A DNA stretch of 64,000 nt from the IMG/VR virus record IMGVR_UViG_3300042519_001676, positions 20,295 through 84,294 of that record; one strand, written 5' to 3'. The stretch is from a virus. The notes under the pieces are model-generated. The model saw nothing but the letters and a program-made list of their open reading frames with translations. It was not told the DNA's origin and did no database searches. Shown one piece after another: positions 2-63,393 of this stretch (position 1 is the first letter of the stretch; every line of letters begins with the position of its first letter). The translations under genes were made by a program, and so were the position numbers.

Positions 2-163
2 TTGGAATCCATCGTTACTGAACAGCACACCACCACGTTTTCTTGTGTCTTGATGATCTCCATTGTGATGGCAACAGACTGCGTTGAAACCTATCCAGCC
101 ACTAGGAGTTGTCTTCCTTTTAGGAGGCAGAAAAGTTTGTACGGAAGCCTGTATGAGATTCAT
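2..163 (-). CDS. Primase-like protein, N-terminal zinc-binding region (partial, runs off left edge)
   Basis: Own translation from ATG at 163: MNLIQASVQTFLPPKRKTTPSGWIGFNAVCCHHNGESQDTRKRGGVLF; Cys/His cluster and position beside replication genes; absent from ORF track. Confidence 0.55.
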   Translation of the reverse strand, partial: MNLIQASVQTFLPPKRKTTPSGWIGFNAVCCHHNGDHQDTRKRGGVLFSNDGFQ

Positions 164-172
164 ACATACAGT

Positions 173-1291
173 TTAGCTTCTTACAAGTACTTTGTCAATT
201 TTTCCGTTTGGATAATAAGCCGAACCAGGAGTAGGATTGCCTGGCATTTCAGGACTGTAGAAGTTTAACAGATTTGGTAAATTTGAATTATCAGGATACC
301 ATTTTACTCTAACATCACTCCAAATGCCTACTGCATTTGCATAATCTACACCGGTAAAATTTGTATAGGTTTTAGTTTCTAATGTTGCATAATTAGCAAA
401 GTTAGAAGGTGCATTGTCCAAGGTTGCTTGCACATCTACGGTGCCAGTGTAATTGGTAAAATACATAGCGATTGTAGTGGCCTGACTCATTTCAGGATTT
501 GCACGTAAGTTTCCAGAATAGAATTCATATCTATTAGGTTCGACGTCCCTATTTGCAAAATATTTAAAGGCAGCAGTTTCTAAACTGTCTTTCAATACTG
601 GTACAAGTTCGCTAGTTAATCTTGCAACTCCGGCAATATTATAATATGTGTTTGAATATGCAGGGATAGATGAACCATCATTGTCAGTCAATGTAACTGA
701 AAAATTATAGTAACCGTTATGTAGTTCTCGAGTGTCGTTTTCAGTCAACGATAATACCGCTAGTCCGCGAGTTGCAGTAGTAACACCGTTGTCAATAACT
801 TCAAGTGTTTTCTGCACAACCATTCTATTTTGTTCTGCATCAAACATAGAAAATACAAAATTATGATTGAAAGTAACCGCGGTGCCCGATGTTATAGTTT
901 CAGTAATGGGTGATAGGAATTGTCCTAGATCAGCATCGTATTGTGGATCTAAGTTATCAAGTGTTAGGGTATTTGAATTAATTGCAGAAATATAAGTGCC
1001 GTTAGTTACACTATCACTGTTCACTAGCATACCTACTTGGACATTGGTAGCATCGGCTACTGTGAGTAAATTAGAAGCAGATGTTGCAGCCCCAACAGTA
1101 CTAGATGCAGCTAAAATTCTAACTAATTTTTGATCAGAGTTTTTAAACTGTAGCTGTACCTTGTTTTTAAGTCCTCTTTGTAATTTTAACTCTCGTTGGT
1201 ACATAGTTTCATGTGTCCTTGTTATATCGTCGTCCAGATCTAATTGTACACTGAACAAATTGGAGTATAAATAGATTGGTAATTTCTGCAT
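173..1291 (-). CDS. Hypothetical virion structural protein (beta-rich)
   Basis: Start moved to MQKLPIY (ATG 1291), TAAATA 5 nt upstream; Thr/Asn-rich beta segments of fibre type. Confidence 0.6.
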   Translation of the reverse strand: MQKLPIYLYSNLFSVQLDLDDDITRTHETMYQRELKLQRGLKNKVQLQFKNSDQKLVRILAASSTVGAATSASNLLTVADATNVQVGMLVNSDSVTNGTYISAINSNTLTLDNLDPQYDADLGQFLSPITETITSGTAVTFNHNFVFSMFDAEQNRMVVQKTLEVIDNGVTTATRGLAVLSLTENDTRELHNGYYNFSVTLTDNDGSSIPAYSNTYYNIAGVARLTSELVPVLKDSLETAAFKYFANRDVEPNRYEFYSGNLRANPEMSQATTIAMYFTNYTGTVDVQATLDNAPSNFANYATLETKTYTNFTGVDYANAVGIWSDVRVKWYPDNSNLPNLLNFYSPEMPGNPTPGSAYYPNGKIDKVLVRS

Positions 1292-40200: not shown

Positions 40201-43200
40201 AGGTAATAGTTGGAAGTATCCTGTAAGGCCTGTACCAGTCCATAGTAAATCTACAATCCCGCCGACTGGGTCGTACCATGATTGTAGCTGATTTGTTCCG
40301 TTTACAGTTAACGCACTTCTGCTGTCAATTGCTCCCACAATAGGGCTTGACATGAATGTGACAAATTCGTTAACGTAGAGTTTTTTGCCTACATATAAGC
40401 CACCACTAATACCTACTGCTTTAGTACTTCCAGAAATTGTTGCCTGCGAAGTATTTGAGAATGTAACAGCATAAGGAGTAATGGCTCCACGCATTGTTAC
40501 ACTTTCTAAAGTGTCTGTTTCAGTAGTTAATACTTGAATACCATTTGAATAGATATTAGCAGCATATACATCGCCAGTAATACCTACTCCGCCGCGGACT
40601 GTTAACGCACCGCTGGTTGTGGAAGTACTAGATGCAGTGTTTAAAATAGTGATTGCCGCAGTGGTTGTTGATCCTCTGTTGGCAACAGTGTCTAGTGTAG
40701 ATGTGTTCCAAACAACTATAACACCAGTAGAAGAAGAAACTGCTGTGTCAGTACCTGCTGTTAGTGCAGTTACACCCAAATCTCCAATACTTGATTCAGT
40801 TACAACTGGACTTCCATTGGAGTATAAGTTGCTAGCATATAAGTTTCCGCCAACTCCTACTCCGCCAGTTACTACTAATGCACCAGTTGTGGTACCGGTT
40901 GAGTTAGTTACATTGGCAAAAGTCAATGCAACAGTGGTTGTTGATCCTCGTTGTGTAACAGTTTGAAGTGTAGATGTATTACTGATTGTAATAACGCCAC
41001 GGCCTGGATATGTAATGCCACTTTCAATATTAATGTCAGCACCGGCCAATGCCTGTGTTACAACATATTGGCCGATTGTTGCAGTTGAAACAATTAATCC
41101 GGTTGAATCAAAATATCTATTAGCGTATAAATCTCCGGCAAAGCTGCCGCCGCCTGCTACTTTTAATGCACCGCTGTTTAGCAACCCGCCGGCGTCGGTC
41201 CTCATTAATTCTAATGTGCCGAACTTTGCTGCACCCCAAGTACCAGAACTTGCAAAGCTAGGAGTATATGCTCCTGCAGGACCTGTTATAACTCCAGTTT
41301 TATAGATTAGAGTTTCACTATTATTATCCATACCCAAGAATGTTCTTGTGTATGTACTAGTTCCTGAGCCTGTGTTGTAATGTAATAATAAACCGCGATC
41401 AAAACCATCGTCAACTGTTAAATCTGTTCCGTCGGGGTTAATACCTAAATCTAGTATAGGGTCAACAATGCTGGTCTGTGTACTGTTAACAATTGTAGTT
41501 GTTCCTCGAACAACTAGATCCCCGACTATAGTTGCCTTACCGCCAACCCATAGGTCTTTAGCAATGCCAACACCGCCCCTAACTACTAATGCACCGGTCG
41601 TTGTGGACACTGCATTTTCAACACTTGTGGCTAAAATTTGTCCAGTAAAGTTTAATGCACCGTTAACTTGCAAATCACTTTCAATTGTGGTTAAACTACC
41701 TGCAGGATTTAAAGTTAAGTTACCGCTAATTGTCTGTATTGTGCTTCCAGAAAGCAACAACTGCCCTACTTGAATACTTGTAGGTTGTAAAACTGATGTG
41801 TTAACACCGTCACTGATTGTTAAGCTAGACAACGGCCCTAATCTAAAGTTAGCTGTACCAAAGTCAACGTTACCTGTACGTTGATTAATACGGAATTCAG
41901 GACCTACTCTAAAGTCACCTAAGTGGTCAACTGTTTGGAAGTATACTTTTGCACCATTTAATCTAACAATTTCATTTGCTTGAATTGCAAGGCTTGGGTC
42001 GTTGGTAAAGTCTTTTCCGCTACCAATGTGACTCATGTTAAAGGCAATTGCTTTAAAGTCAATACCTTCGCCATCTGCATATATACCGTAATTACCGTAG
42101 ACTACAGCAGATCCAATACTACGCAACTCTCCGCCAAACTGTCTGTAATCTGCAAGACTGATTTGTTGAGCACTGGCTACTACTGCCGCAGTATAAGTTC
42201 CAGTAGTGGAGTAAACGTTTTGACTGCCTAATCCGTCATCTGTAAAACTTGTACTTAAATTTGCACCGTCGCAGTGTAATAATACAGTTGTGCTATTGTC
42301 ACTTGCGTAAGCACTAGTTGGAGGTGTAAAAGATCCGGTGTATCTAGGAGTAGTGCTTATTCTAAGTTCGTCTAGATAACCTCGTAAACTTAACGTTGGT
42401 ACACCTGTATAGCCGCCAATTGTCAAACTATCTGCATTGGTTATATTTGCAGACGAAGTAGTAGTTGCTTCAAGGTTACCATTGATAAACAATCTATTAG
42501 TATTGCTTAAATCACGGCTCATCATTACATGATACCATGTGCCAGTGCTTAAGGTATTTGTAGAAGTAAATGCAATAGCACCGTGTTGTCCTGCAAGTTT
42601 GTTGTCTGCACCTACCCAAAGACCAAATGTTGTTGAAGGAGTAAGTCCTTTATTGACAACGTATTGCTTTCTGTTATTCTGTGTTAGGTGAATCCAAGCT
42701 TCAACGGTATAAGAACTAAACCCGTACTGTAAATCAGCATCGCTTACAATGTCTAATAAGTCGCCGTCGGTGGTAAAGTATGCTGCACCTGTTCCGAACT
42801 TGCGTTCAAAACTGCTGATTACTGTGGCATTGTAAACGTTAATTGTTTTACCAGTTCTGTCTGCTGCTTCAACAAACCCAGATGCCTTGCCGTCTAGGTA
42901 AACGTATTCGCTAGTGACTTCGTCAATTAATCCCGAAGCTAATAATGTACCAGTTGAACCAACATAATGTAGATTATGACCAACAGTGAATGTTCCTGTA
43001 CTGTTTGCTAGACGTAGTCTTGTACGGCCTTGACCACCCCAACCAACAGATCCGCTGGTACCAACAATACCCTTATCTGCAAAATAACTAAAACCGTTTA
43101 ATAATTCAACTCTTGTTCCGTTAGTAATATGTACCGCTTCACTGCTAGGAACAATAAAAGTTGCTTCGTTGAATAAAAAGGCTGCTTCGAGACTGGTAGG

Positions 43201-43941
43201 GTCAACATTTGCACCATCTAAGTATGCACCGCCGCCTGCATCATTGCTGTCAAAACCGTAAGGGTCACCTACCGTAGGGTTTGATCCTTTTGTCAGTACT
43301 GAAAATCGTTCTACATACGGGCTACGTGTTGTGATTTTTGCACCCGGTGCAAACTTAAATGCATATCCCGGTTTGTAAAATCCGCCAACAGTAAAGTCGC
43401 TGATTGTGGTTTCACCGTTTAATAAAAATGCACTCTGTGTATTGGTTGCAGTAGTAGGAGAAACGTATACCTGTCTAAGTCCTGCACCTTTAACTGATAC
43501 TCCAGCTGGTACAGTTAGCGGGAATTCTTCAACGTATGTTCCTGCTAAAATGTTAACCGCAGCATTTGCTCCAACGGCATCTGCAAGTTCTAAACCTCGC
43601 TTTACAGTTCTAACAGCAGATTGCGGCAATTTGCCGCTTGCATTATTGTCACCGTCTTCAGAAACATAGAAATGATGATAATCACTTTTTAATAAATTAA
43701 CACCCTGAACAATTAAATCACCTTGAATGCCCACTCCGCCTGCGACCACTAATGCACCTGTTAGTGAACTAGTAGATGTGGTGGTGTTTATTATGAATAG
43801 TGGACCGCCAAACGTGGATCGGCCCGATGTTGCGATGCCCCCGTGTACAACGAGTGCTCCTGTTGTGGTGCTGGTTGATGTGGCTGTTAAACCATTAAGA
43901 ACTACAGCACCGTTTTTAACGATGAAATCAGCTTGTGCCAC
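37228..43941 (-). CDS. Giant fibre/appendage protein: beta-helix-like region, LamG/ConA-like domain, GALxVxGGxG repeats
   Basis: GTG start; YVSEDGDNN..G; YTVEAWI..WYHVMMSR..GYLDELRIS (LamG); repeated STTTGALVVxGGVG. Confidence 0.75.
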   Translation of the reverse strand: MAQADFIVKNGAVVLNGLTATSTSTTTGALVVHGGIATSGRSTFGGPLFIINTTTSTSSLTGALVVAGGVGIQGDLIVQGVNLLKSDYHHFYVSEDGDNNASGKLPQSAVRTVKRGLELADAVGANAAVNILAGTYVEEFPLTVPAGVSVKGAGLRQVYVSPTTATNTQSAFLLNGETTISDFTVGGFYKPGYAFKFAPGAKITTRSPYVERFSVLTKGSNPTVGDPYGFDSNDAGGGAYLDGANVDPTSLEAAFLFNEATFIVPSSEAVHITNGTRVELLNGFSYFADKGIVGTSGSVGWGGQGRTRLRLANSTGTFTVGHNLHYVGSTGTLLASGLIDEVTSEYVYLDGKASGFVEAADRTGKTINVYNATVISSFERKFGTGAAYFTTDGDLLDIVSDADLQYGFSSYTVEAWIHLTQNNRKQYVVNKGLTPSTTFGLWVGADNKLAGQHGAIAFTSTNTLSTGTWYHVMMSRDLSNTNRLFINGNLEATTTSSANITNADSLTIGGYTGVPTLSLRGYLDELRISTTPRYTGSFTPPTSAYASDNSTTVLLHCDGANLSTSFTDDGLGSQNVYSTTGTYTAAVVASAQQISLADYRQFGGELRSIGSAVVYGNYGIYADGEGIDFKAIAFNMSHIGSGKDFTNDPSLAIQANEIVRLNGAKVYFQTVDHLGDFRVGPEFRINQRTGNVDFGTANFRLGPLSSLTISDGVNTSVLQPTSIQVGQLLLSGSTIQTISGNLTLNPAGSLTTIESDLQVNGALNFTGQILATSVENAVSTTTGALVVRGGVGIAKDLWVGGKATIVGDLVVRGTTTIVNSTQTSIVDPILDLGINPDGTDLTVDDGFDRGLLLHYNTGSGTSTYTRTFLGMDNNSETLIYKTGVITGPAGAYTPSFASSGTWGAAKFGTLELMRTDAGGLLNSGALKVAGGGSFAGDLYANRYFDSTGLIVSTATIGQYVVTQALAGADINIESGITYPGRGVITISNTSTLQTVTQRGSTTTVALTFANVTNSTGTTTGALVVTGGVGVGGNLYASNLYSNGSPVVTESSIGDLGVTALTAGTDTAVSSSTGVIVVWNTSTLDTVANRGSTTTAAITILNTASSTSTTSGALTVRGGVGITGDVYAANIYSNGIQVLTTETDTLESVTMRGAITPYAVTFSNTSQATISGSTKAVGISGGLYVGKKLYVNEFVTFMSSPIVGAIDSRSALTVNGTNQLQSWYDPVGGIVDLLWTGTGLTGYFQLLPAGSQTLALGANDVVKIAGGSSGSNFVGINTATATAQLEVGGDIKAANIYSNGSLVITNASLGTYGVTSLTTGSGIAVNTSTGAVIIESIDTLQLVTERGNSTTNAIIINNNTVSNSTSTGALVVSGGVGIGGQATIETALITVSLKGTPAATAVFENTTASTTTTDGAVVIYGGLGVGKQVRAAELYDSGNRVVTNVNPTAGSGITITDEISVGTATSFTINNTGVIAAVGSTYIGVSSATGIVTFTNLGVQTLTAGTDTSVSRTTGTVVVWNTSTLQSVTNRGATTTNAISISNNTDSNTSTAGALTVAGGVGIGRNLIVGGNAAIYGNLQVFGTQTYVNSTQTVVIDPVLSLGAGIDNTNLNVNDGFDRGVLLHYSTTASSSSTYDNHSFLGMDNASKKLVYKTDIWPGGFQEFPALFSNTGTWGAAQFGSLNLVNTTSATNTVSGALTVAGGAGIGGDLYVGNRIYAAGLEVLTTSSLGSGGIGVSQIFAGTDTAVSSNFGAITIWSTATLDSITSRTSSTNQIIYFNNTSQATNTATGSVQVAGGVSIKKNLYVEGSIFGAPGYIEHSEYAGASPGTNQWIKCLTWSLPNVGDSTTFKIKSAVKATASVVYSDNMDNDVLWVSYVKDAVSTVLGTVYWISESGEAALSVGTTNHTVTYDPISGDFEYWRRSTVAGGRIWTLITEEIPANTAYQTVTPAMIVNSSWAASVTSLGATATIDDPDVTSFEDLTVAGTLTHSGTTANISNNTAALTANIASAATLAATLKTVNIGTAGVATSIANINIGSTITGALGVLTVGSTLTNFRSTQTAINTQSAAVVITGGLAVGDNIVLGDGATTRGILDANIVSNGTFAAAGDAQSGSYILRGLATSTSTFTLTVNNTTATTNNQVILPDNSSYMFKVFATAKSTTSNDEGAWEFSGSISRYAGANTTVVRTVNKTKIWASQAYDVNVVADAVNGGLSVQAIGVASGSVRFVAKVETVEVTT

Positions 43942-49001: not shown

Positions 49002-52000
49002 TTATGCTCCTACAACCAAGATAAACGGTGTCATTTCAGCATACAAACTCTTTTGGAAAGTTCGTCCGCTTAGAACGCCTGTACTCTGGCTAATAACCAG
49101 TGTAGGTCCGATTCGGAAGTCGCCATTTTGATCTGTTGAAGTAAAGAACACCTTACCATTATTTAACTGAACTACTTCTTTGCTCTGTTGAGGGTCAGCA
49201 GTACCAACTTGAGGCAATGCCCCGTACTGTGTACCTGCACCAACATATTCAAACAAATAGCCAGAAGCAGAAATATAACTCTGTTGATAGAATCTAACAC
49301 TTGCACCATCAATAAACAATGTTGGGTCAGTTACGTTCTGTTCTAGTCTCACTAAATGATACTGCCCTTTACGCAAGAAGTATCCATTACCAGTGTTTAC
49401 AGAATTATAGTTTCCGCCATAGATTAGATCGTATCCCACTGCGTCTACAATTGCACCAGTGTCTCTAAAACATTTTGCTCTATCATAATTTGTTGCATCA
49501 GTAAACACTGCATCAATATATGCCACAACTTCTGCTTGAACAAAAGCTCTGTTTGCTAACAAGATACTAAACGAGTTTACAACCGCAGTGCTAGTGCTTG
49601 CTACTGCACTGATCGGCTCTTGTGTAGGTGCAACGCCTGGACCATTTTCAATGATGTTTGTGATATTATCAATTTTTGCCTGCACTAAACTTACTTCAGC
49701 AGGAGTACCTACTGCTGAAGACAATACTTGTGGAACTTTCTTTTGATAAGTTACTGGAATTGCAGTACCTTGAATTATTTTATCAACCAGTTCTCTAATG
49801 TAATTGTATGCCGCAGTTGTCTGAGGAATCTGATCGTCAATAGCAGTGTCAGCTGCATTAAATCCGTAGTAGTAAACTCCGGAAGTAACACTTTGTCTGT
49901 TACCTCCGTGTTGTAAATCAAAACCAATGCTGTCAACAATATAGCCTATATCTCTTCTGCATTTTGTTCTGTCGTATTCAAATTCAGTATTGTCTAAATC
50001 AATTCTTGCAATAACTTCATCTTTAATAAAATTTGCATTTGCTTCTAATAAATCAATCGCTGTTACAATATCGGTACTAGTTTGAACCACACCGTTAGGC
50101 ACAATTATGTCAGTTACTCCGCCTGTCCCATTTGATAAGATGTTGAGAATAACATCTACATTGCCAGTTAACACGCCCGCAATGCCTTCAGTGCTGGATG
50201 GAAGATTTGTTACTTGTACAGTATTATTTCCAGTAGTTGCAACAACAGTGTTATTCAACACAATATCTCCAACTACTTGTTTTAGGTATCTAATAGCGTT
50301 AGTTGTAGTGGTAATTTCACCTCGAATGGTTCCTACGTATGTATCTTGATTCCAATATTGCAGACCTGCAAATGTGCTTTCAGTAGTACCTTCATATAAT
50401 AGGTCAAAAGCAATACTGTCAACAATCAATCCTGTGTCTCTTCGACACTTAGTTTTATCGTATAAGAATCCAGTGTTATATTCGTTGTTGATAAATGCGA
50501 TTGTTTCTGCACGAATAAAATCTCTGTTAGCATTTAATAAATTTGCCGCATTAATTACAGAAGTGCTAGTGCTTCTTGTGAGTGCAATTGGTTCTTTTGC
50601 TAATACTTCGTCTGGACCGTATTCAATTATATTGTTAATTAAATTAACATTACTCTTTATTAGGTCTGCTTCAACGGTAGTACCTGTTAGTGTTGATACT
50701 ACCTGTACTACTGTACTTTGTTGGGGCTCAGCAATTAAGGTACCTGTAACGATATCAGAGACAATTTGTTCAATAAAATTGTAAGCACTGGTTGTCTGAG
50801 GAATTTCATTTGGAATAGCTGTGCTATCTTCTAGGTAGCCGTAGTAATAAACTCCGCTTTGAACCGATTGTTTATTGCCGCCATATAGAACGTCAAAGCT
50901 GACGCTATCAATCATATAACCAACATCTCTAAAACACTTGTCTTTGTCGTATACGAACCCTGTGAATGTGCTATCAATATAAGCAATGATTTCGTCTTTG
51001 ATAAATTCTCTGTTAGCTACTAACAAATCGTATGCACGATCTGCATTTGTATCAGTGCTTGGAGTTAGACTAATAGGAAATAGTTCGCTTGCTGCTGCTG
51101 GACCGTTGTTAATAATGTTTGTAATTTTATCAACTTTAGCTTGTGCCGCAGTAATCTGTGCAGTACTTGAAGGCAGCATATAGGTAACTTGGATAGTGCT
51201 GTTACCTAAACTTGGAGTAATAGTAACTCCAGTTAAAATACTTGGTAATATTTCTTTTATTCTATTATATGCTGCGGTAGTCTGCGGAATTTCATTTGGT
51301 ACCGCAGTAGAGGTGCTATCATAACCGTAGTAAAGAACTCCGCTTTGAACAGCTTGTTTATTACCGCCGTGCAACAAGTCAAATGCAACACTGTCAACCA
51401 TGTAGCCTACATCTCTTGCACACTTAGTTTGATCGTATTCAAACTCAGCAGTTTTTGTATCTTCAACATATGCAATTGCTTCTGCTACTAGATACGGTTT
51501 ATTTGCTATCAATAAATTATAAGCATTAACGGTAGCAGTAGTAATGCTTCTTCTGCCATTAGGAACAATTATATCAGTAACGCCAGCAGTACCAGTTGAA
51601 AGGATATTTAAAATAACTCCAAAATCAGTGCCTACTGCTACTGCATCTAAAATTCCGCCCGATGCTGTAGAAGTAGTTTGTGTCACAGTGCTTTGATATC
51701 TAGTACCCGATAGGTCACCAACTACAACTTTTTGTGCTATTGAACTGACATGTATAATTGCATTAGTGGTAGTGGTAATTTCTTCAGCAATTGACCCAAC
51801 ATAATTGCTTTGATTCCAATATTGCAGTCCAGCAAAATTGCTTTGGCTATCAGTGGCTGTTGGATATAATAAATCTAATGCAATACTGTCAACAATAAGA
51901 CCTGTGTCTCTTGCACACTTAACAGAATCGTAAACAAAGTTTGCATTGGCTTCAACCCATGCTACCGTTTCGTGCTGTAGATAATTTCTATTTTGTTGCA

Positions 52001-55000
52001 ATAAATTATATGCAGCTAATCTAGCAGATGCCGTTGATGCAGATAATGCGTTAGGAACAATCTTATCAGTAATTCCATCTGTACCGTTATCTAAAATATC
52101 AACAATTACATTAAAGTTAGTTCCTACCACAGCAGAAATCAAACTTGTAGAACTTGTAATAGTACTTACTACTTGAGTTACTGTGCTTTGATAGTTATAT
52201 GTTGAAGTAGTATTTGTTACTACTTTCTGTGCAAGTGATTTTAAGTACTTAACTGCATTAGTAGTAGTTGTCTGCTCGCCCGGTATAACAGTTAGACCTT
52301 GATTCCAGTATTGAATTCCGGCAAAAGTACTTTGACTTGTTCCGTTGAATAATAAATCTTGTGCTAAACTGTCAACAATTAATCCAGTGTCTCTACTACA
52401 CTTCACTGGGTCGTAACTAAATTTACTTGGCCAGATACTGTCCACAAATGCCACTGTTTCGTTTTGAATAAACAGTCTATTCTTATCAAGTAACTTCTTA
52501 GCGTTTAAAATATTTTGATTTGTGTCAACATATTGTCTCGGACGTTGGATAGCCGGACTAGAGTCAGCACCATTTATAATGATGTCAGCAATTATATCAA
52601 ATTTTTCGCCTAGACTAGGCACAGCGTCGATGCCACCTGTTAAGGATGCGTCAAATATCTGTTGATATTCTGATTGGTATGTTCCAGAGTCGTAAGTTTC
52701 GTTAATGTATGCAATTACTTCTTCCTGAATAAATGCTCTATTAGCGTTTAGTAATCGATAAGCATTGTACACATTAGGATCGACTGACTCAGTTAAACTA
52801 ATTGGAACTTTAATTTCGGCAACTGATGGTCCACTGTTGATAATATTAGTAATATGGTCAATTAAAGTCTCAACCACAAGAACTTCGGTATCGGTAGCTG
52901 CATCTAAATTAGTAACTTGATCAAGGTACGTTTGGTATGTTGAAGTGGTAACACCTTTAAGAACAAACGGCATTAACTGCTTGATATAATTATAAGCCGC
53001 AGTAGTCTGAGGAATTTCTCCTTCAATGGCTGTGCTAGATGCATTGTATCCGTAATAATAAACACCGCTTTGAATTGCCTGCCTATTGCTTGCCTGATTT
53101 CCATTAGGATGTATTAAATCAAATGCAACACTGTCAACCATATAGCCAACATCTCTGTAGCATTTTACAGAATCATATGTAAATCCCGGAGCTTTTGTAT
53201 ATTCTACAAACGCAACTGCTTCTGTTTGAATATATGATCTGTTTGCAACTAACAGTGAGTACGCATTAACTATGTTTGTTGCAGTAGATTGATCTCCGTT
53301 TGGCACAATTCTATCACTTACTCCTGCAATTCCATCTATAATAATATCAATAATAACTTCAAAATCGTCAGATACAATACCAGCTTCAACTGCGGTTGCA
53401 AAATCTCCTACAACATTTTGAGAAACAGTACTTTGGTATCTTGTTCCTGTTGTAATTCCTTGTACAATTTCTCGTGTAAGTTCCTGCACGTATCGAATTG
53501 CATTTGTGGTTGTGGTAATTTCGTCTGTAATTTCGTTAATGTAGTTTTCTTGATTCCAATATTGTAATCCTGCAAAATTACTTTGACTTAATTCAGGTGT
53601 TGGGTATAACAAGTCAAGTGCTAGTGCATCTACAATTAGTCCAGTATCTCGTTTACATTTGGCCTGATTATAAACTAGACCAGTAATTTCTTCGTTTTGT
53701 ATTATTTTCAATGCTAGTTTTTTAGCATAGCTGATTGCTAAACTAGTAGTAGTTTCTTGTCCAGGAACCAACGTCACTTCTGTAGTAACAGTTGACGACA
53801 GACTAGTATCAATAGAACTAGACAGTACTGTATAATAGGCATTGCCGCAGAAATACAAATTAAAATAGTTAGCATTAGCTAAGTCAGTATAACCTGTTAA
53901 GATAGGTGTGTCTAATGTTATAGAACGATAATTAACGTCAACTACCTGTGTTCCGGTAGTAATGTACGGCTGTCCAGTAACTGGATGTGTTTCCATTCCT
54001 AGTACATCTCGAACATACAAAGTATGACCAACTGCAATACTAGTAACATCGATGTCGTTAATAGTATAACTACCAGTTGTGATAGTAGAGGTGTTGGAAG
54101 TAACCGCTAGATATCCCGGATATCCTGCTTCGTTAACATACGGAACACGATTACCTTCATAATTTATATATGTGTCAGGTGGAACAACTTCCATAACCTG
54201 ACCAATGTGAGGACGATCGCGGTCATTAGGAATGAATACTTCCATTATCTGTTTTTGAGGCCAGTAACCTAAAGGATAGTATTCACCGTTTGGTACGTTG
54301 GTAGGGTATGCAGGGTTTCTAATAAATCCCTGGAAGGCCAGTTTTCCTAATCCCTTTGCAGTTAAACAAGTGTCGCCGAAGTTGGCGTTAGAGTTAGTAA
54401 TAGAAGCAATGCCTCCGTTCTCAACAATAACAGCCTGACTACACATAATCGTAAACACAGATACAAGCTGTGCGTATCCGTTGTTAATAATATGAATGCC
54501 GATGCCGCCTTGATTCAACTGTGTAAACGCATCAAAAACAAACGACTGAATAGGCGAACGTAAGCTAGGAGCATTACCGTCAACAAGGGCACCGCCTCCA
54601 GATCCTTCTGGGTTTAATCGACGGTCAACATATTTGTCGCCGTCGTCAGCGGTCCATATTGCAGGAATGTCTGCATCTAAGTAAGGATAGGTTGTGGTAT
54701 ATCCAAAATATACAGTTGCATTATCGCTTGGACTTACTGTAGAAGTACTAAGAGTGATAACATAGGTGTTGGTAGTCAACTGTGTTATTTCAGTAACAGT
54801 ACTTGCAACGTTTACGTTATTTGGACTTAGCCCGGTTGGATAAATCAATCCTAGTAAATCTGCTGTAGGTGTGTCTGGTGCTGCTGCTTCTCCATCTACA
54901 ATAATATTTTTAATCAAATCATAACTTGATGCAGCTCTAGTATAGACTACTTGTCCTTTATCAAGGTTTAAATTAATAACTTGATTTGATAATGTACTGT

Positions 55001-56315
55001 AAATATTTGTTACTGTGGTATTAGTAATAACTTCTAGAGAAATTTCTTTCAAATAGTTAATTGCGTCAACTGTTTGAGTAACTTCGTTTGCTATTAACGA
55101 ACTATTTCCACTCCAGTATGCAAGTCCGGCCTCAATACTACGTTTATTACCACCTAATCTTGCATCTCCTGCTACAGCATCAACAATGTAACCCACATCA
55201 CGATAGCATTTTGCTTGGTCGTATACTAAGTCTGGAAAAGTAGCTTCTACATATGCAACAGTTTGACTTTGTAAGAAAGTTCTATTTTGTTTTAAAAGTA
55301 CCTGTGCATTTCTATAACCTTCGTTTGCTGCATCATTTAATGCCATGCCTACAGCAATAGTTCCTGTATATAAAGTAACTGTAATTTGATTTTGATCAGC
55401 AATCCATGTACTAGTTCCTGCCGCTAATGGAATTTGAACTGTTTGGTTTGGCACCATCATTGTGCCATCTTTTAACCAAGGACCTGATTGATTAGTACAG
55501 TTCTGAATGTACGGAGAATAATAAATGTCAATCGGATTTTCTAAGTTAGGAGGAAATGCACAGCAATATGCACCAGTGGTATATGTGCCAGCACCGCCCG
55601 GTGCATATCTTTCGACTGCACCTCTACGTAGGTTACGCATCTGCATCTGTGCAATATAAACACCAGAGTTAACATGGAATAAGTCTAAGTCTTTGTTTAA
55701 AGGTTCAACGAATGTTGTACGTAAGTCGTTTCCAACCACGGATGTATACGGCTTCAACGGAATAGGATTATCTTCAAAGTATGTACCTGCCATAACTTTA
55801 ATAGCAGTACCCGATTGATAGAACGGGCTTCTTACAACTCCACTAATAGTACGGCAAGCACGGGTTGAGTCCATTGATGTCCCGTCGTTTTCGTCGTTAC
55901 CGTCAGGAGTTACATACAATGTATTACTGACCAGCGGTGCAGTTCCTTGGGGGATTCCTCTAACTGTAAAGTCACCATCTATAATTGCGTCTTGTTCAAC
56001 ACTAAAATTTCCGGCAACTCTAGCAGATTGATACGGAGTTAGAACAATGTCGCCATTATTGACCGATCCGTTGATTTCGATGTCAACCCCTGCCTGTGTG
56101 CCGGATATTACTTGTTCATCAAATTCTAATTTGCCAAGTGTATTGGTAAAAGTTACTCTGCCACTTTCATCTGTTTGTAAAGTAAAACCAGTATTTGCTT
56201 CAGGTGCGAGACCCAAAGCAGGTTGTGCTTGCTGAAGATTTAAATATTCGAATCTATTTTCTTTTAAATCTTCCGGACGCGATACGGGTTTTCGATTACT
56301 TAATAAACGTGGCAT
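49002..56315 (-). CDS. Giant probable virion protein: beta-helix-like scaffold with 10 KCxRD phycobiliprotein-like repeats
   Basis: LYVTPDGNDENDG, SPYIQNCT, FTSTDQNGDFRIG scaffold; 10 Y[DN]xxKCxRDxG repeats. Confidence 0.75.
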   Translation of the reverse strand: MPRLLSNRKPVSRPEDLKENRFEYLNLQQAQPALGLAPEANTGFTLQTDESGRVTFTNTLGKLEFDEQVISGTQAGVDIEINGSVNNGDIVLTPYQSARVAGNFSVEQDAIIDGDFTVRGIPQGTAPLVSNTLYVTPDGNDENDGTSMDSTRACRTISGVVRSPFYQSGTAIKVMAGTYFEDNPIPLKPYTSVVGNDLRTTFVEPLNKDLDLFHVNSGVYIAQMQMRNLRRGAVERYAPGGAGTYTTGAYCCAFPPNLENPIDIYYSPYIQNCTNQSGPWLKDGTMMVPNQTVQIPLAAGTSTWIADQNQITVTLYTGTIAVGMALNDAANEGYRNAQVLLKQNRTFLQSQTVAYVEATFPDLVYDQAKCYRDVGYIVDAVAGDARLGGNKRSIEAGLAYWSGNSSLIANEVTQTVDAINYLKEISLEVITNTTVTNIYSTLSNQVINLNLDKGQVVYTRAASSYDLIKNIIVDGEAAAPDTPTADLLGLIYPTGLSPNNVNVASTVTEITQLTTNTYVITLSTSTVSPSDNATVYFGYTTTYPYLDADIPAIWTADDGDKYVDRRLNPEGSGGGALVDGNAPSLRSPIQSFVFDAFTQLNQGGIGIHIINNGYAQLVSVFTIMCSQAVIVENGGIASITNSNANFGDTCLTAKGLGKLAFQGFIRNPAYPTNVPNGEYYPLGYWPQKQIMEVFIPNDRDRPHIGQVMEVVPPDTYINYEGNRVPYVNEAGYPGYLAVTSNTSTITTGSYTINDIDVTSIAVGHTLYVRDVLGMETHPVTGQPYITTGTQVVDVNYRSITLDTPILTGYTDLANANYFNLYFCGNAYYTVLSSSIDTSLSSTVTTEVTLVPGQETTTSLAISYAKKLALKIIQNEEITGLVYNQAKCKRDTGLIVDALALDLLYPTPELSQSNFAGLQYWNQENYINEITDEITTTTNAIRYVQELTREIVQGITTGTRYQSTVSQNVVGDFATAVEAGIVSDDFEVIIDIIIDGIAGVSDRIVPNGDQSTATNIVNAYSLLVANRSYIQTEAVAFVEYTKAPGFTYDSVKCYRDVGYMVDSVAFDLIHPNGNQASNRQAIQSGVYYYGYNASSTAIEGEIPQTTAAYNYIKQLMPFVLKGVTTSTYQTYLDQVTNLDAATDTEVLVVETLIDHITNIINSGPSVAEIKVPISLTESVDPNVYNAYRLLNANRAFIQEEVIAYINETYDSGTYQSEYQQIFDASLTGGIDAVPSLGEKFDIIADIIINGADSSPAIQRPRQYVDTNQNILNAKKLLDKNRLFIQNETVAFVDSIWPSKFSYDPVKCSRDTGLIVDSLAQDLLFNGTSQSTFAGIQYWNQGLTVIPGEQTTTTNAVKYLKSLAQKVVTNTTSTYNYQSTVTQVVSTITSSTSLISAVVGTNFNVIVDILDNGTDGITDKIVPNALSASTASARLAAYNLLQQNRNYLQHETVAWVEANANFVYDSVKCARDTGLIVDSIALDLLYPTATDSQSNFAGLQYWNQSNYVGSIAEEITTTTNAIIHVSSIAQKVVVGDLSGTRYQSTVTQTTSTASGGILDAVAVGTDFGVILNILSTGTAGVTDIIVPNGRRSITTATVNAYNLLIANKPYLVAEAIAYVEDTKTAEFEYDQTKCARDVGYMVDSVAFDLLHGGNKQAVQSGVLYYGYDSTSTAVPNEIPQTTAAYNRIKEILPSILTGVTITPSLGNSTIQVTYMLPSSTAQITAAQAKVDKITNIINNGPAAASELFPISLTPSTDTNADRAYDLLVANREFIKDEIIAYIDSTFTGFVYDKDKCFRDVGYMIDSVSFDVLYGGNKQSVQSGVYYYGYLEDSTAIPNEIPQTTSAYNFIEQIVSDIVTGTLIAEPQQSTVVQVVSTLTGTTVEADLIKSNVNLINNIIEYGPDEVLAKEPIALTRSTSTSVINAANLLNANRDFIRAETIAFINNEYNTGFLYDKTKCRRDTGLIVDSIAFDLLYEGTTESTFAGLQYWNQDTYVGTIRGEITTTTNAIRYLKQVVGDIVLNNTVVATTGNNTVQVTNLPSSTEGIAGVLTGNVDVILNILSNGTGGVTDIIVPNGVVQTSTDIVTAIDLLEANANFIKDEVIARIDLDNTEFEYDRTKCRRDIGYIVDSIGFDLQHGGNRQSVTSGVYYYGFNAADTAIDDQIPQTTAAYNYIRELVDKIIQGTAIPVTYQKKVPQVLSSAVGTPAEVSLVQAKIDNITNIIENGPGVAPTQEPISAVASTSTAVVNSFSILLANRAFVQAEVVAYIDAVFTDATNYDRAKCFRDTGAIVDAVGYDLIYGGNYNSVNTGNGYFLRKGQYHLVRLEQNVTDPTLFIDGASVRFYQQSYISASGYLFEYVGAGTQYGALPQVGTADPQQSKEVVQLNNGKVFFTSTDQNGDFRIGPTLVISQSTGVLSGRTFQKSLYAEMTPFILVVGA

Positions 56316-56335
56316 TGCTTTCTCTTTAAAATATT

Positions 56336-56722
56336 TTAGTTGTTAGCTGTTTCGAGAATACTCAATACTAACTTCATAGTGCCGTTAGCATCTGTGAACG
56401 CTCGAATACTATCTTGTGCTTCTAAAATCATTTTACCAGTGATCAAACTTGCTGAATCGTTTGGCGGTACTTCAAAGTTCTGAACTAGTTCTGTAGTAAT
56501 GTTAGGTTCTTGTGAGTTGTTGCCCTGTGCATCTGGCAGCACTCTAAAACGTCTGTGATGACTGAATGTAATAGTGTGCGATGCAGTAGGGTCAACGTTT
56601 GCAACCTGAGCCATTAGTACAATTGAAGTAACACCAATAGGTGCAACATATACTGTCGCTGTTGAATTTGTATCTAATACTTTTGTTTTTGTTTTAAACG
56701 TGTTTAATGGAATTAATGCCAT
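56336..56722 (-). CDS. Small structural/adaptor protein
   Basis: 128-aa beta-rich ORF (YVAPIGVTSIVLMAQVAN...LSILETAN) between the two giant paralogs; SD AGGAG. Confidence 0.7.
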   Translation of the reverse strand: MALIPLNTFKTKTKVLDTNSTATVYVAPIGVTSIVLMAQVANVDPTASHTITFSHHRRFRVLPDAQGNNSQEPNITTELVQNFEVPPNDSASLITGKMILEAQDSIRAFTDANGTMKLVLSILETANN

Positions 56723-56733
56723 ATATTTCTCCT

Positions 56734-59700
56734 TTATTCTCCGCCCGTCTCAACTGCTAAGATGAAGGGCGTCATCTGAGCGAATAAACTCTTTTCAAAT
56801 GTTCTTCCTGATAATACACCAGTTGCCTGACTAATTACCAACGTTGGTCCAATTCGGAAATCTCCGTTCTGATCCGTTGAAGTAAAGAACACCTTACCAT
56901 TATTTAACTGAACTACTTCTTTGCTCTGTACAGGATCAACACGACCTACTTGAGGTAATGCACCGTACTGTGTGCCGGCACCGCAGTATTCAAACAAATA
57001 ACCAGATGCACTTTGATAACTTCTTTGATAGAAATTAACAGTACTACCGTCAATATATAACAACGGGTTCCTCACGTTGTCTTCAATTGTAACTATATGA
57101 TAAGTTCCGTCTCTTGTGTAATATGTTTTAGCTGCTTCAACTGCACGGAAGTTTCCGCCAGTTGCTAAATCAGCAACTATTGCATCAATCATCAAACCAA
57201 CGTCTCTTCGACATTTTTGTCTGTTGTATTCAAAGCCACCAAACTCATTTGCAATGTATGCAATGACTTCTGCTTTGATAAAATCTTTGTTTGCATTTAA
57301 TAATGCAAATGCTCGTGCTACCGCCTGACTAGTATCCATTACTAAACCAATTGCTTTTCTTTCTTCTGCAACAGACGGACCATTAGATAAAATATTAGTA
57401 ATAACATCAATCTTAGATTGTAATGTAACGGCCTCTGCATCAGTTGCAGGCAATAGATTAGTAATCTGTGCTATTGCATTTTGATACTTAGGACTAATCG
57501 GAGTTCCGGTTATAATATCTCCTACTAGTCCTTTGATAAAGTTATATGCCGCAGTAGTCTGAGGAATCTCTCCTACAATAGTAGAACTAGTTGCATCAAA
57601 GTTATAGTAATATACCCCAGCCATTATACTCTGTCTGTTACCACCGTGTACTAGGTCAATAGAAACGCTGTCAATAATGTAGCCAACATCACGAGAGCAT
57701 TTGGCTTGATCGTATGTAAATCCAGGATGGTTAGCAGTGATCCAACTAATTACCTGAGCCTGTATAGTTGACTTGCTAGCCTGTAGAGAATCAAATGATG
57801 CTAACGCACCGGCGTCTGTTGTTTTGTATCCGTTAGCTACAATAATATCTGATACGCCAACTGTTCCATTCTCTAAAATTTCTAGTATTTCGTCAAATCG
57901 TTGTCCAACTACTACTCCACCACTACCTGCTGCCGACACTGCTAGACCTTTTGCATATTCAATCGCAGCAGTAGTTGTGGTAATTTGGCCGCCAATGCCG
58001 TCAACGTAATTAGTTTGACTCCAGTATTGTAAGCCTGCAAATGTACTCTGTGAAGTATCGTCATACAACATGTCCATAGCAATACTGTCAATAATTAATC
58101 CAGTATCTCTCCTACACTTATTCTCATCGTATGTGAATCCGCCAAATATATCATCAGTGTATCCAACTACTTCGTTCTGAATAAAAATTTTATTTAATTT
58201 TAGTAATTCAATTGCACTTTCATAATAATCTGCTCTAGTGCCAGTTGATTGTACAGCCGGTGCAACTTGTGGGCCAGATAAAATTACATTGGTGATAATA
58301 TTAAGACGATCTCTAATGAAAGAAATAGTATTTTCACCACCTTGATAACTTGTATTAATATTTTGACTAACCGTAGTAGTATATGTTCCAGTGAATGCTA
58401 CATTGGAAACTACTGCACTTGCTAATTTCTTTAAGTGATTAATAGCATCAATAGTTTCTGTTTCTTGTCCAAGAATTTTACTTTGTCCTGTTGGGTACGG
58501 GCTTTCTGCTACTACACTGGTCAACACATTATAATATGCATTTCCACAGCAATAGATATTGAAGTAGAAACCGTTTCCGTATTCTCCGCCGCCCGTTTCA
58601 ATGGGATTACTTAAAGTAATAGATTGATAGTTTACTTCTACAATTGTTGTACCAGTAGAAAGATATCTAGTACCTTCTCCGTTGTCAGGTGCTTCGTAAC
58701 CAAATTGATCTTTAATAAAAACTTCTTGCCCTACGCTTGCACCAGTGACGTCAATTCCAGAAATAGTGTAGCTGCCAGTTGTTATCGAGCTAGTGTTAAT
58801 AATTGCTGTTAAGAATCCAGGATAGCCTTGTTCATTTCTGTATGGCACTACCTCGCCGTCATAGTTTACATACTGATCCGGGGGCTCTACCTCCATTACT
58901 AAACTAATGTGTGGCCTGTTGAGTGGGTCTGGAACAAATACACCAACTTGCTGTCGGTATGGGAAGAACCCCTGCGGATAATATTCGTTTGGTTCAAATT
59001 CGTTCGTCAGCTCATTGTAAGCAATGTTTGCTGGGTTATAGATTGTACCGCCAAACTTTCTTTTGCCGTAACCTGTTGATAATAAACATAAATCGCCAAA
59101 GTTATTGTTAGAGTTAGTAATAGAAGCAATGCCTCCACTAGCAGTTTCGACAGCAACATTACAGAAAATTGTAAACACAGAAACTAACTGTGCATAACCT
59201 TCGTTAATAATGTGAATGCCGCGGCCGCCTTGTGTAATTTGCGTAAACGCATCAAACACAAACGACTGAATCGGACTTCTACGGCTTGGAGCATTTCCGT
59301 CAACTAGAGCTCCGCCACCCGAACCGTTTGGATCAATACGACGATCTGCATAACCGTTTTCACTCCACTCGCCTGGCATATTTTTATCTTCAACTGGGTA
59401 TACTGATGTATATCCAATATAGATAGTGTCGTTTACGGCTGCACTAACTGTAGAAGTGCTTAGATTAATAATGAATTGTGTTAGGGTACTATTTGTACTA
59501 AACGGAGCATAAGCCGGGCCGTTGTTAATAATAGTAGTAATAGCATTAAAATTACTGTCAACTAGATCTCTTGCAACATCGCCGCTTGGTAACTGACTAT
59601 TGATAATCTGAGAAACTACCGCTGTCATTGTGGTAGAACTTGTTCCAGGAATAATTGTTTCCATCGATTCTTGATAGAAAGATGTAACTGGATTGTTAGC

Positions 59701-62700
59701 AATAACGTCAAGTGCAATGCTCTTGATATATTGAATTGCACCGGCAGTTTCTTTTAATTGTCCTTCAATTACACTAACAGCACCGTCCCAATACGATAGT
59801 CCTGCTTCAAGAGAGTTCACATTTGACCTACGAATAATATCATTTGCAATTGCATCAACAATTAATCCAACATCTCTAAAACATTTTTCTTCGTTGTAAT
59901 TAAATTCGTAGGGTTGGATAAATGTCTTGTTTACAAACTCAACAGTTTCAGCAACGATAAAAGCTCTGTTGTCTTTTAATATCTGGTATGCACGAGCAAT
60001 ATTAGTTGAAGTACTAGCTGCCAATGTGATAGGCACTTGGACCGGAGCTTCGCTTGGTCCTTTCTTAATTATTCTTTTAATTAAGTTTATATTTTCAGTA
60101 ATTGCTTTGGCTTCATTAATACTTGCACCCAAGTAGTCAAAATTTTGTTCAACTTCAGTTTGATAAACTTTTGTAGCTGGAATACGTTGAACTACCTTCT
60201 CAATCAATGTGCCCATAAATTTATATGCTGCCATTGTTTGTGGAACTTCGTTAACTAATACGGTACTAGTACTATTATATCCGTAGTAATATACACCAGC
60301 CTGAACGCTTTGTCTATTGCCACCACGTAACAAGTCCATAGCCACACTGTCAATTACATAAGTAACATCTCTTCGACATTTTGTTTGATCGTATGTAAAA
60401 CCTGGATTGTTTGTGTTTATCCATGCAATAACTTCGTCTGCAATAAAATCTTTATTTCCTATTAAATTATTAATTGCATTAGTTATGGAAGTACCTGTGT
60501 TAATATCACCGTTAGGCACTATTATGTCAGTTACTCCAATAGTCCCGTCAGTGATAATATCAATTACCGTATCAAATTTTAACCCTAAAATATCTGCGGT
60601 GGTAATATCAGTTCCTGTACTAATATATTGTGTTAACGTGCCCTGCGGAGAAATTGCAATTCCTTGAACAATATCTTTAGAAATGTCTCTTGCAAAAGTG
60701 AAGGCGTTAGTTGTAGTAGTTTCTTCACCTGGAATAACTGTATTAGTTTGATTCCAGTATTGTAGTCCTGCAAAAGTACTTTGACTAGATCCGCCATGTA
60801 CTAAATCTAAGACCAAGCCGTCCAAAATTAGTCCAGTATCTCGTCCACACTTTTCTTCATTATATTCAAAATCTAAGTTAGTAAAGGTAACATCGATATA
60901 GTTAACTACTTCGTGCTGTAAAAATGCTTTGTTAGCAACTAATAGATTGTAAGCAGCAACAATTCCAGGAATGGAACTGATACTTCCGTTGTTTACAATT
61001 GTTGGGACTAATAGTCCATCATTAATCAGTGCGTTAATTAACTCTATATTTCTAGTAGTAAGTTCTACAGCAGCGTTTGTACCTGTAACTAAGTTAGTCA
61101 CTTGAGTTACCGTAGTTTGATAGCCGTCGTTTATCTCTTGTTGGAGAATAACATCTCTTACTATCATGCCTAAATAATTAAATGCTGCAATTGTTTCATC
61201 TACTTCGTCAGCTATAGCAATACCGCCAAGGTAAGCACTTCCGGCAGCAACTGATTGTTCATTGCCACCGTACAACAAATCTGTAGCAATGGCATCAATA
61301 ATGTAGCCAGTATCTCTAAAACATTTTGCTCTGTCGTATTCAAAACTAGGAATTGGTTGTCCAACGTATGTGTTATTAACAAACGCTACTGTTTCAGCTT
61401 GTAAGAATCCTCTATTTGCATTTAACAATGCTGCGGCATTTTCATAACCGGTATTGTTTCTTATAATGTCAATTAATAAATCCATCAACATGACAATATT
61501 GTCTTCGGCAATATCACCGTCAACTAATTCTATGTCTACTACTTGATTAGCAATATTTCCTGCACTCTGTATAGTTGACAGATCTGCATTATTAACAATC
61601 CCTACCGCAAATGTTTTAATTCTTTCAAATGCTGCAATAGTTGGAATTGTTTCTTCGCCGAGAATTTGTACATTGCCAAGATAGTAAGAACGACCCGTGT
61701 CAACAATTTTTTCATTACCGCCAAGTACTGCATCGTTTATCAATGCATCTATAACATATCCTGCATCTCTTCGACATTTTGTTTGATCGTAAACCAGTTC
61801 TGGATAAGCAACATTAATATATGCAAGTACTTCTTCTTGCATATAAGATTTATTCAAAGTCAATAATTGTTTTGCGTTCCTAAAGCCGGGATCTGGGTTT
61901 TCAACTGACTCAATCGTAGCAATCGGTGCATCGTCTTCAATTAGAATGCCTGAGCCGTTCACTGCCATACCAATCTTAGGCATCTGTGCAGTTACTTCAG
62001 GTTGAATATTAATTGTAATTGTAGTAGTACTGGACGCATAGGTTGCAGTTGCTACTACTAACGGAATTTGAACAATCTGATTTGGCACAAACATTGTGCC
62101 ATCATATAGCCACGGACCTGACTGGTTAGTACAGTTTTGAATATACGGACTATGGAATAGATCAATAGGATTATCTAGTCGAGGAGGAAATGCAACACAA
62201 TATGCACCAGTGGTATATGTGCCAGCACCGCCTGGTTGATAGCGAGTAACTTCACCACGTCGCAGATTTAACATGGTCATACCTGTGATATAAACACCAG
62301 AGTTTACATGGAACAAGTCAACTGTTTTATTCAACGGCTCTACAAACACACCTCGCAAGCTATCGCCGTATACTGACGTATACGGTAATAATGGAATAGG
62401 ATTATCTTCTGCATAATAACCCGGTGCTATTTTAATAACTGTGCCTTGTTTAAAATAAGGACTGCGTGTAGCTCCAGTAATTGTGCGGCAAGCACGAGTT
62501 GCATCCATTGCACGGCCATCGTTGTCGTCGCTTCCGTTTTCGTTTACATACAAAATATTATTAACAACAGGTGCAGTACCCAAAGGACTGCCACCATACA
62601 CACGGATGTCTCCGTTAATCTGTACGCTCTTGTTTAAAGTTCTTTCTAACAACGGAATATCAGGAAAGAACTGTATGCTAGTAGCAGTTCCAGCAGTGTC

Positions 62701-63297: not shown

Positions 63298-63393
63298 GCT
63301 TGCTCCCTATACCCCGTGTTTCACGGTTAACCACCTTTCATTGCGGGTTTACCACAGTATAATCTGCCGAAACATCCGGCATCGTTATATTTA
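63298..63393 (-). promoter_or_regulatory. TAAATA promoter plus structured 5' leader of about 85 nt
   Basis: TAAATA 63388-63393; stems TGCCG/CGGCA, TATAC/GTATA, GTGG/CCGC, CCGTG/CACGG before the SD. Confidence 0.55.

Follow-up and report, generated by a model that had tools for sequence, protein, structure and literature searches.

The window considered here is a stretch of 64,000 nucleotides, bases 20295-84294 of the 84,294-base IMG/VR virus record IMGVR_UViG_3300042519_001676, the completeness of which is estimated at 23%. On its minus strand lie two giant open reading frames (ORFs): P0001 (49002..56315) encodes a tail-fibre-like structural protein of 2437 amino acids (aa), and P0002 (56734..63297) encodes its paralogue of 2187 aa. 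Both proteins contain arrays of a repeated unit, and the order in which two types of this unit, A and B, succeed one another, together with what this order may say about the path of the chain, is the subject of this text. The two proteins are 39% identical over 1147 columns and 49% identical over their last ~600 residues. The PHROG tail-fibre families phrog_4527 and phrog_5342 match both ORFs with E values of 1e-80 to 1e-102, and for the set of profiles phrog_4527, phrog_5342 and phrog_17885 the E values lie between 3.7e-93 and 3.7e-102. A conserved C-terminal domain closes both proteins, where the ends of the phrog_3442 and phrog_17885 profiles match; in P0001 this tail-fibre domain occupies 49014..49307 (minus strand, aa 2337-2434). 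Matches in BFVD are cyanophage tail or structural proteins, and a gene-block location test places both genes within a baseplate/tail block. On the strength of family and context, P0001 and P0002 appear to be giant paralogues that serve in the tail fibre, or in association with the baseplate, of an uncultured T4-like cyanophage.

The KC.RD motif occurs ten times in P0001 and eight times in P0002, i.e., 18 times in all, and a hidden Markov model (HMM) built from the KCxRD stretches revealed by hmmsearch that the motif belongs, in P0001 and P0002 alike, to contiguous units of ~162 aa. Typed by motif, tree and HMM, these 18 units comprise six of type A, six of type B and six of other types (O). 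The unit order of P0001 is O | A B x A A B B A B T, where x is a truncated and T a terminal unit and the bar separates two arrays, and the C-terminal domain follows. All features of both proteins lie on the minus strand. The first array of P0001 is a single unit of other type at 54873..55358 (aa 320-481, KC at aa 369). The second opens with a partial d-helix remnant joined to a type A unit (53313..53807, aa 837-1001, KC at 886), after which come a type B unit (52815..53312, aa 1002-1167, KC at 1051) and the truncated unit x (52551..52814, aa 1168-1255), which has kept helices a, b and e without the KCxRD core. The next four units form an AABB block, made of the outer A (52065..52550, aa 1256-1417, KC at 1305), the inner A (51573..52064, aa 1418-1581, KC at 1466), the inner B (51084..51572, aa 1582-1744, KC at 1631) and the outer B (50598..51083, aa 1745-1906, KC at 1793). 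The array ends with the AB pair used for modelling, A at 50109..50597 (aa 1907-2069, KC at 1956) and B at 49626..50108 (aa 2070-2230, KC at 2118), and with a terminal unit that consists of helices a, b and c only and leads into the C-terminal domain (49296..49625, KC at 2281). The truncated unit x recurs at the same place in many homologous architectures (ABxAABBAB...) and looks like a conserved spacer rather than a product of recent decay.

The order in P0002 is O O A B O | x a B T, again followed by the C-terminal domain. Its first array comprises two units of other types (61000..61923, aa 459-766, KC at 507 and 658), a type A unit (60529..60999, aa 767-923, KC at 816), a type B unit (60040..60528, aa 924-1086, KC at 973) and another unit of other type (59506..60039, aa 1087-1264, KC at 1138), which is the source of the Pfam Phycobilisome match discussed below. 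The second array is opened by a partial unit with d and e helices only (58261..58494, aa 1602-1679) and continues with a shortened type A unit (57850..58260, aa 1680-1816, KC at 1727), a type B unit (57361..57849, aa 1817-1979, KC at 1866) and the terminal unit (57037..57360, aa 1980-2087, KC at 2028).

A sequence-only reading of this DNA had given the order in the main run of P0001 as A, B, a truncated unit, A, A, B, B, A, B and had counted two A,B pairs in the 2187-aa protein; motif, tree and HMM agree with it on both points. Its statement that the KCxRD repeats fall into two subtypes holds insofar as A and B are real and distinct, and fails for the six units (12 of 18 being A or B) that are neither. 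The consensus strings it proposed fared unevenly. All three A strings match five of the six A units and two of the three match the sixth, so that the A consensus fits, whereas the B consensus was written too tightly, its first string matching 6/6 B units, its second 2/6 and its third 3/6; no string crosses between the types, and the six other units match none. The span of 49461-60860 that it assigned to the repeats runs from the last KCxRD of P0001 (49461-49475) to just past the first A-type KCxRD of P0002 (60838-60852), and it omits the P0002 units at 61312 and 61765.

The reality of the two types was examined on relatives of the two proteins. A scan of IMG/VR with an alignment-derived pattern returned at least 597 stretches, with 565 confirmed relatives among the matches listed; 76 loci were kept, and together with the window they yielded 684 units, 500 of them near full length. 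A FastTree phylogeny of these 500 placed the five window A units that were scored in one clade (98 units) and the six window B units in another (96 units), with zero cross-members. The remaining 306 units are of other types, and the family thus has more than two kinds of unit. Typing by HMM reproduced the tree labels completely (A 98/98, B 96/96).

The columns of the unit do not all follow the same history. Columns 56-164, from just after KCxRD to the end of the unit, track the type of the unit itself, and in columns 3-42 (linker, helix a and helix b) the type followed is that of the unit before. The change from one to the other falls at the invariant F.YD..KC.RD, which implies that the evolutionary module extends from helix c of one unit to helix b of the next.

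The order of A and B becomes legible when A is taken as an opening and B as a closing bracket. In the 76 loci, the unit after an A is a B in 77 cases, a second A in 22 and a unit of another type in two, and once the array ends there; conversely, the unit before a B is an A in 77 cases (a partial A in 10 more), another B in 22 and a unit of another type in two. Balanced words account for 65 of the 80 maximal A/B runs in this set, and they include AB (40 times), AABB and ABAB (8 each), AABBAB (5), ABAABB (2) and AABAABABBB (2), while BA, BBAA, BAAB and BABA never made up a whole run among those 80. A second set, consisting of the 120 best full-length homologues in the protein database, contained 58 distinct architectures and 57 distinct arrays with A or B. 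Here 49 of the 57 arrays are balanced, against 12.4 on average and never more than 24 when the order was shuffled 2000 times, and the nesting reaches a depth of three (AAABBB, AAABABBB, AAABBABB). A third set of 142 further cluster representatives at 50% identity, 60 of which have typed A or B units, gave 43 balanced segments of 68 against a shuffle maximum of 25.

It was also considered that the order might be an artefact of biased typing. This explanation was rejected, as typing on the own-type columns only left 1122 of 1124 A/B labels unchanged, and 49 of 60 arrays were then balanced against a shuffle maximum of 22.

Units of other types have their own place in these arrays. They can sit inside an A...B bracket, often as OO (e.g., xAABABBAOOABABBO; another architecture reads aOOBxOOOO), and in some words that lack an A for balance an O unit takes its position (AOBB, ABAABABBAOBBAB). 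It may be that these types follow their own pairing rules or that divergent A units are among them.

Partners in the brackets also have a common history. Within proteins, the distances between A units correlate with those between the adjacent B units (Mantel r 0.476, P 0.002; 68 pairs of pairs from 10 proteins with at least three AB pairs each, some of these proteins being related). For AABB quads, the distance profiles favour the nested pairing (A1-B2, A2-B1) over the crossed one in 14 of 15 cases, with a mean difference of 0.095, these quads representing only about six independent lineages. These results point to AB as a co-inherited unit. The proposal of the sequence-only reading that A-then-B was the unit of duplication is supported, insofar as A followed by B behaves as one unit, by the partner distances, by the balanced arrays and by the A:B interface that covariation and models indicate.

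Evidence on this interface came from a mean-field direct coupling analysis (DCA) of 462 distinct adjacent AB pairs, with an effective number of sequences (Neff) of 295. Within units the analysis recovered the expected contacts, namely the d-e hairpin and the packing of helices a and b on helix c, and across the junction it found a contact of the d/loop region of A with helices a/b of B. Couplings of a different sort stand near the top of the list: c69 of A with c69 of B ranks second, and e147 of A with F75 of B ranks third. They belong to a reciprocal, near-symmetric series in which F72/75/76/79 of A couple to e147/151/150/154 of B, and e144/151 of A to c60/59 of B; the spacing of i, i+3/4 and i+7 is as expected of a helix-helix contact. 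Counted among the top 100, the reciprocal e-c/F' plus c/F'-c/F' couplings number 12 at AB junctions, 4 at BA, 1 at AA, 2 at BB and 0 at B-other, although the lower Neff of the comparison junctions (85, 68, 105 and 136 in the order BA to B-other, against 202 for AB) weakens this contrast. The d/loop-to-a/b contact, on the other hand, is present at every junction type. A putative A:B interface is supported in this way by data that are independent of the geometry learned by AlphaFold.

The sequence-only reading had also proposed structure prediction of an AB didomain as a check for a defined interface, which the AlphaFold models, taken with the covariation, do indicate. The AlphaFold2 model of AB, built on an alignment of 56 AB didomains, has a predicted local distance difference test score (pLDDT) of 91.6 and a predicted template modelling score (pTM) of 0.78, and the AABB model has a pLDDT of 88.8. 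Each modelled unit is made of helices a, b and c, with KCxRD at the start of c, a short helix F', a hairpin, helix d, a long loop and helix e. When the AB model is compared with known structures, the alignments to phycobiliproteins span residues 45 to ~320 (45..319), with their ends in helix c of the A unit and helix e of the B unit. The AABB model gives two registers. The first spans 43..644, starting in helix c of A1 and ending in helix e of B2, with the allophycocyanin 8or7_A (Z 7.2, root-mean-square deviation (rmsd) 2.1 A, 88 residues); the second spans 206..483, starting in helix c of A2 and ending in helix e of B1, with the ApcE structure 4xxi_A (Z 7.0) and five more phycobiliprotein entries. 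In both models (12..397 and 11..721), many small helical-hairpin targets align to helices a/b of the first unit together with the c helix of whichever unit follows the balanced block, which suggests that the modelled chain would return to its starting point. A regular superhelix was considered as the origin of these long alignment ranges and rejected, as the same type of contact joins units i and i+1 in the inner pair and units i and i+3 in the outer pair.

From these data, an architecture can be proposed in which the shafts of both ORFs would be arrays of the ~162-aa helical unit and A and B, as sister subfamilies of this unit, would act as complementary halves packed side by side. The packing would be near-symmetric, helix e of each unit lying on the c/F' helices of its partner and the ends of the c helices touching. 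The chain would run out along A units and back along B units, with the outer A on the outer B and the inner A on the inner B in AABB, so that a balanced block would start and end at the same point. Arrays would grow by the gain of balanced AB blocks, and repeated gain at unit boundaries would itself yield a balanced A...B order. Out-and-back pairing would make the arrays obey the bracket order, and from it would follow that an A is never left open, that AABB and AAABBB occur and that phages differ from one another by balanced blocks. Overall, this architecture is judged probable, with a fair margin for error.

A number of observations weigh against it. The window alone has three A-to-B steps in the run of P0001, an order not beyond chance (permutation P = 0.16-0.17), and the significance of the order comes only from the relatives. 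The supports of the A and B clades in the 500-unit tree are moderate (0.62 and 0.70). Unbalanced words make up 8 of 57 arrays in the second set and 25 of 68 segments in the third, many of them at fragments or beside units that cannot be typed. The counts overstate independence because the sequences are related, and the HMMs used for typing come from this one family; that so many different balanced words occur nevertheless argues for a rule. The AABB model has a pTM of only 0.56, the structural Z scores (6.2-8.1) are below the level that the aligner treats as safe for helical proteins, and the nested packing is read from the models and from alignment ranges, i.e., from the first and last aligned residues only. 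A coupling-energy test of low power gave 1207 for held-out inner pairs, 981 +/- 199 for random pairs, 1053 for the outer A1-B2 pair and 1064 (A1-B1) and 954 for the crossed pairs, and it did not separate the outer pair from crossed A1-B1. A complex prediction with the A and B alignments as separate chains, run without controls, gave a median score of 0.29 against a mark of 0.32, which is evidence neither way.

The strongest of the other explanations holds that history alone is at work: A-then-B would be the frozen by-product of tandem AB duplication, the units would be beads on a string, and the nested packing would be an artefact of the models. Such a history would suit the shared descent of A and B partners, the generic contact of d/loop in one unit with a/b in the next at every junction type, the low pTM of AABB and the failure of the coupling-energy test to decide on the outer pair. 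However, tandem duplication of AB yields ABAB, and not AABB, AAABBB or AAABABBB, which need A and B to be gained separately by way of unbalanced intermediates, and these are rare. It is also at odds with the concentration of the reciprocal, helically periodic e to c/F' couplings at A-to-B junctions and with the structural alignment that ties A1 to B2 across ~600 residues. On balance, a purely historical origin is rather unlikely.

The nature of the unit itself is a second question, since the KCxRD motif recalls the chromophore site of phycobiliproteins. PF00502 is the only Pfam family above its cut-off: the full P0002 sequence reaches 26.1 bits (cut-off 22.2), with no single stretch passing alone, and P0001 had no PF00502 match in the same scan. 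A six-frame search of the viral record with PF00502 gave no candidate, and the loose first filter of such a search can overlook repeat matches as weak as these. Among the 120 homologues listed in the second set, the precomputed annotation of 62 has PF00502 as the sole Pfam family, and those with names are all called hypothetical. A profile of the 18 units found only three matches among PDB sequences, and all three are phycocyanin alpha chains (E 0.0043, 0.12 and 0.71). In both HMMER and hhalign alignments the Cys of the unit falls on Cys84 of alpha, and the chromophore-site residues Cys84-x-Arg86-Asp87 of helix E are present; the flanking helices and the closing GG align with phycocyanin alpha too, not the motif alone. 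The site is kept throughout the 500 units (Cys 485, Arg 485, the following Asp 495, a later Asp 500 and Tyr 494, i.e., 97-99% for the K-C-x-R-D site). When the AB model was compared with all representative chains, phycoerythrin 5aqd_M came first (Z 8.1, rmsd 2.5 A, 107 residues), and six of the top eight were phycobiliproteins or ApcE.

Profile-profile comparison and phylogeny place the units with respect to the alpha and beta subunits. The references were obtained from 120 cyanobacterial loci found with an alpha-motif pattern, which gave 116 alpha-type and 99 beta-type ORFs of phycocyanin type only. Against alpha, hhalign gave a probability of 91.8% for all units (58 columns), 93.8% for B, 91.3% for the other types and 67.1% for A; against beta, the values were 37%, 1.6%, 33% and 1.5% in the same order. 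A tree inferred jointly from 87 units, 20 alpha and 20 beta sequences splits the repeats and alpha from beta with a support of 0.996 and puts A and B in one subclade of 60 units inside the repeat family (0.999). The sequence-only reading had called for a phylogeny with both subunits included; A and B form separate clades in the 500-unit tree, and the joint tree sets them together in one subclade, on the alpha side. The X-Y hairpin, the N-terminal element that builds the alpha-beta protomer, has no counterpart in the units: the alignments begin at alpha residue 34-39, and in the AB model only ~12 linker residues stand ahead of helix a. We conclude that the unit is a distant alpha-like relative of the phycobiliproteins without the X-Y hairpin and that A and B arose within the phage family.

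Some results count against this kinship. Scanned singly against PF00502, 2 of the 18 units match at E<=1, and the best of them (17.2 bits) stays below the cut-off; the joint tree supports monophyly of all repeats relative to alpha with only 0.39; Foldseek found no match of the AB model in PDB at E<=0.001, and a search of the ESM Atlas gave no usable match. For the globin-like helical fold of phycobiliproteins (helices A, B, E, F', F, G and H), the Z values of the structural search are under the aligner's caution level for helical proteins. The marginal E of 0.0043 in the PDB search, the short hhalign alignment (58 columns), a Z of at most 8.1 and the empty Foldseek and ESM Atlas searches speak for convergence, that is, an unrelated helical bundle that shares a short KCxRDxG motif. 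Yet four partly independent lines lead to the same family and to the same register: Pfam above cut-off and in 62 of 120 homologues, PDB sequence matches that are all phycocyanin alpha, the profile-profile comparison to alpha, and an unbiased structural search topped by phycobiliproteins for two models. The alignment of the flanking helices and closing GG is likewise more than a shared motif would give, and convergence is judged quite improbable.

The last explanation takes A for the alpha and B for the beta subunit of the phage, a fused protomer having been multiplied with different chromophores on its halves. It has in its favour two types in A-then-B order, a Cys-x-Arg-Asp site kept in both and a predicted phycobiliprotein-like fold, but it is very hard to sustain when both types match alpha far better than beta, form one subclade (0.999) within a group of repeats and alpha that is apart from beta (0.996), lack the X-Y hairpin and coexist with further unit types. 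The equation of A with alpha and B with beta was accordingly rejected on the hhalign profiles and the joint tree, and the likeness to an alpha/beta protomer drawn by the sequence-only reading survives as an analogy only, A and B being both nearer to phycocyanin alpha.

Whether the repeats carry a pigment is a separate matter. The units are otherwise only 35-50% alike, and yet Cys-x-Arg-Asp is kept in 97-99% of them, which suggests that the site is constrained much as it is in phycobiliproteins. Bilin binding by the repeats is possible but rated as doubtful. Searches of the 84-kb record turned up no gene for CpeT, bilin reductase (Fe_bilin_red) or haem oxygenase (Heme_oxygenase), which says little given a completeness estimated at only 23%. 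A still more elaborate possibility is that the units work as biliprotein repeats with a bilin on each KCxRD Cys, forming a pigmented and possibly light-responsive fibre in which the A/B brackets would be a topological code for out-and-back, even branched, rods of set length; the bilin would come from the host or from phage synthesis and would be attached autocatalytically or by phage-encoded lyases. This whole chain of suppositions, the supply and attachment of the bilin included, is improbable. If Cys-x-Arg-Asp does bind bilin, it would give a new purpose to the bilin-synthesis and lyase genes carried by cyanophages.

Several known systems help to place these proteins. The alpha subunit of phycobiliproteins (CpcA, PF00502) resembles the unit in that K-C-x-R-D-x-G falls on the Cys84 site, its helices A and B align with those ahead of the motif and a GG closes the helix; it differs in that the phage units are without the X-Y hairpin, occur in up to 40 copies per chain and are parts of phage structural proteins, and in that the A-B pairing would take place via helix e and c/F' rather than the alpha-beta interface. 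Among the best structural matches are chains of the core-membrane linker ApcE (4xxi_A at Z 7.0, and also 7sc7_BD, 7eyd_19 and 9wg7_N2), a very large protein which attaches its own bilin and in which a phycobiliprotein-type domain is likewise embedded among others. In ApcE this domain is single, linker repeats follow it and the protein serves in a cellular antenna, whereas here the domain itself is the repeat in a putative virion fibre. With regard to the path of the chain, the intramolecular antiparallel coiled coils of SMC/Rad50 and the antiparallel pairing of spectrin alpha and beta are out-and-back rods, and by analogy the outward stretch of the phage shaft may likewise form half of a rod and the returning stretch the complementary half, with the ends meeting. 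Unlike those rods, that of the phage would be modular and built of two kinds of globular helical units, with steps nested or side by side in one chain. The components are known in kind, i.e., phage fibre proteins, the phycobiliprotein fold and out-and-back rods, and their combination is a variant of them.

The giant fibre proteins of T4-like cyanophages (phrog_4527, phrog_5342, phrog_17885; S-PM2, S-CAM1, S-WAM2, S-H9-1) share with P0001 and P0002 the repeat family, the C-terminal domain and the baseplate gene neighbourhood. In the genomes of cultured phages the identity of the AB didomain is 38% at most (79 records, the best being Synechococcus phage DSL-LC03), and a megablast search of the gene against cultured phages gave no match. 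By tblastn, relatives occur in 343 records of cultured or named phages, nearly all from Synechococcus or Prochlorococcus phages and all below 60% identity. The family comprises 1499 cluster representatives at E<=0.001 and 674 at 1e-30, with up to 40 matched stretches in a protein and lengths up to 6382 aa, and the A and B subfamilies and the bracket order are seen mainly in uncultured viral contigs and metagenome proteins.

Tail fibres determine the host choice of phages, and, to our knowledge, the structure of the fibres of marine and freshwater cyanomyoviruses is almost unknown. The present analysis gives a domain-level description of a giant fibre-protein family and points to an evolutionary link between a part of the virion and the light-harvesting proteins of the host. 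The balanced A/B brackets supply a simple, testable rule that would predict chain folding and length change, and such a rule would let the length and shape of a fibre vary without breaking the fold. A full-text literature search, with supplementary files outside its scope, found no account of phycobiliprotein-like tail-fibre repeats or of an A/B order rule; in one study, the fibre proteins of cyanomyoviruses are described as largely unassigned (PMC2984593).

The surroundings of the arrays add some further observations. In both paralogues, the first repeat array is flanked by two conserved non-repeat blocks, within positions 53676-56000 for P0001 (aa ~120-835) and 58492-62600 for P0002 (aa ~235-1600), and a Pfam search of these blocks found no family. 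The array between them holds one unit in P0001 and five in P0002, and 1 to ~16 units in homologues (e.g., AAABBBOAAABBABBO). If both flanking blocks make one domain, the array would be an insertion whose ends meet, which would fit a chain that follows a closed path.

Beside the fibre genes, at 30176-47240, lie very large structural ORFs of 2336, 2237 and 1084 aa, all on the minus strand. The one of 2237 aa (37228..43941) is a baseplate wedge subunit (family match E 7e-169) and is the next ORF downstream of the fibre genes, the ORFs in between being structural. The repeat HMM found no units in the 2237-, 1084- and 581-aa ORFs, the three that it was run on besides P0001 and P0002. Finally, an ORF of 172 aa on the plus strand (62903-63421), situated in the 5' part of P0002 on the opposite strand and wholly within it, is probably a chance frame.

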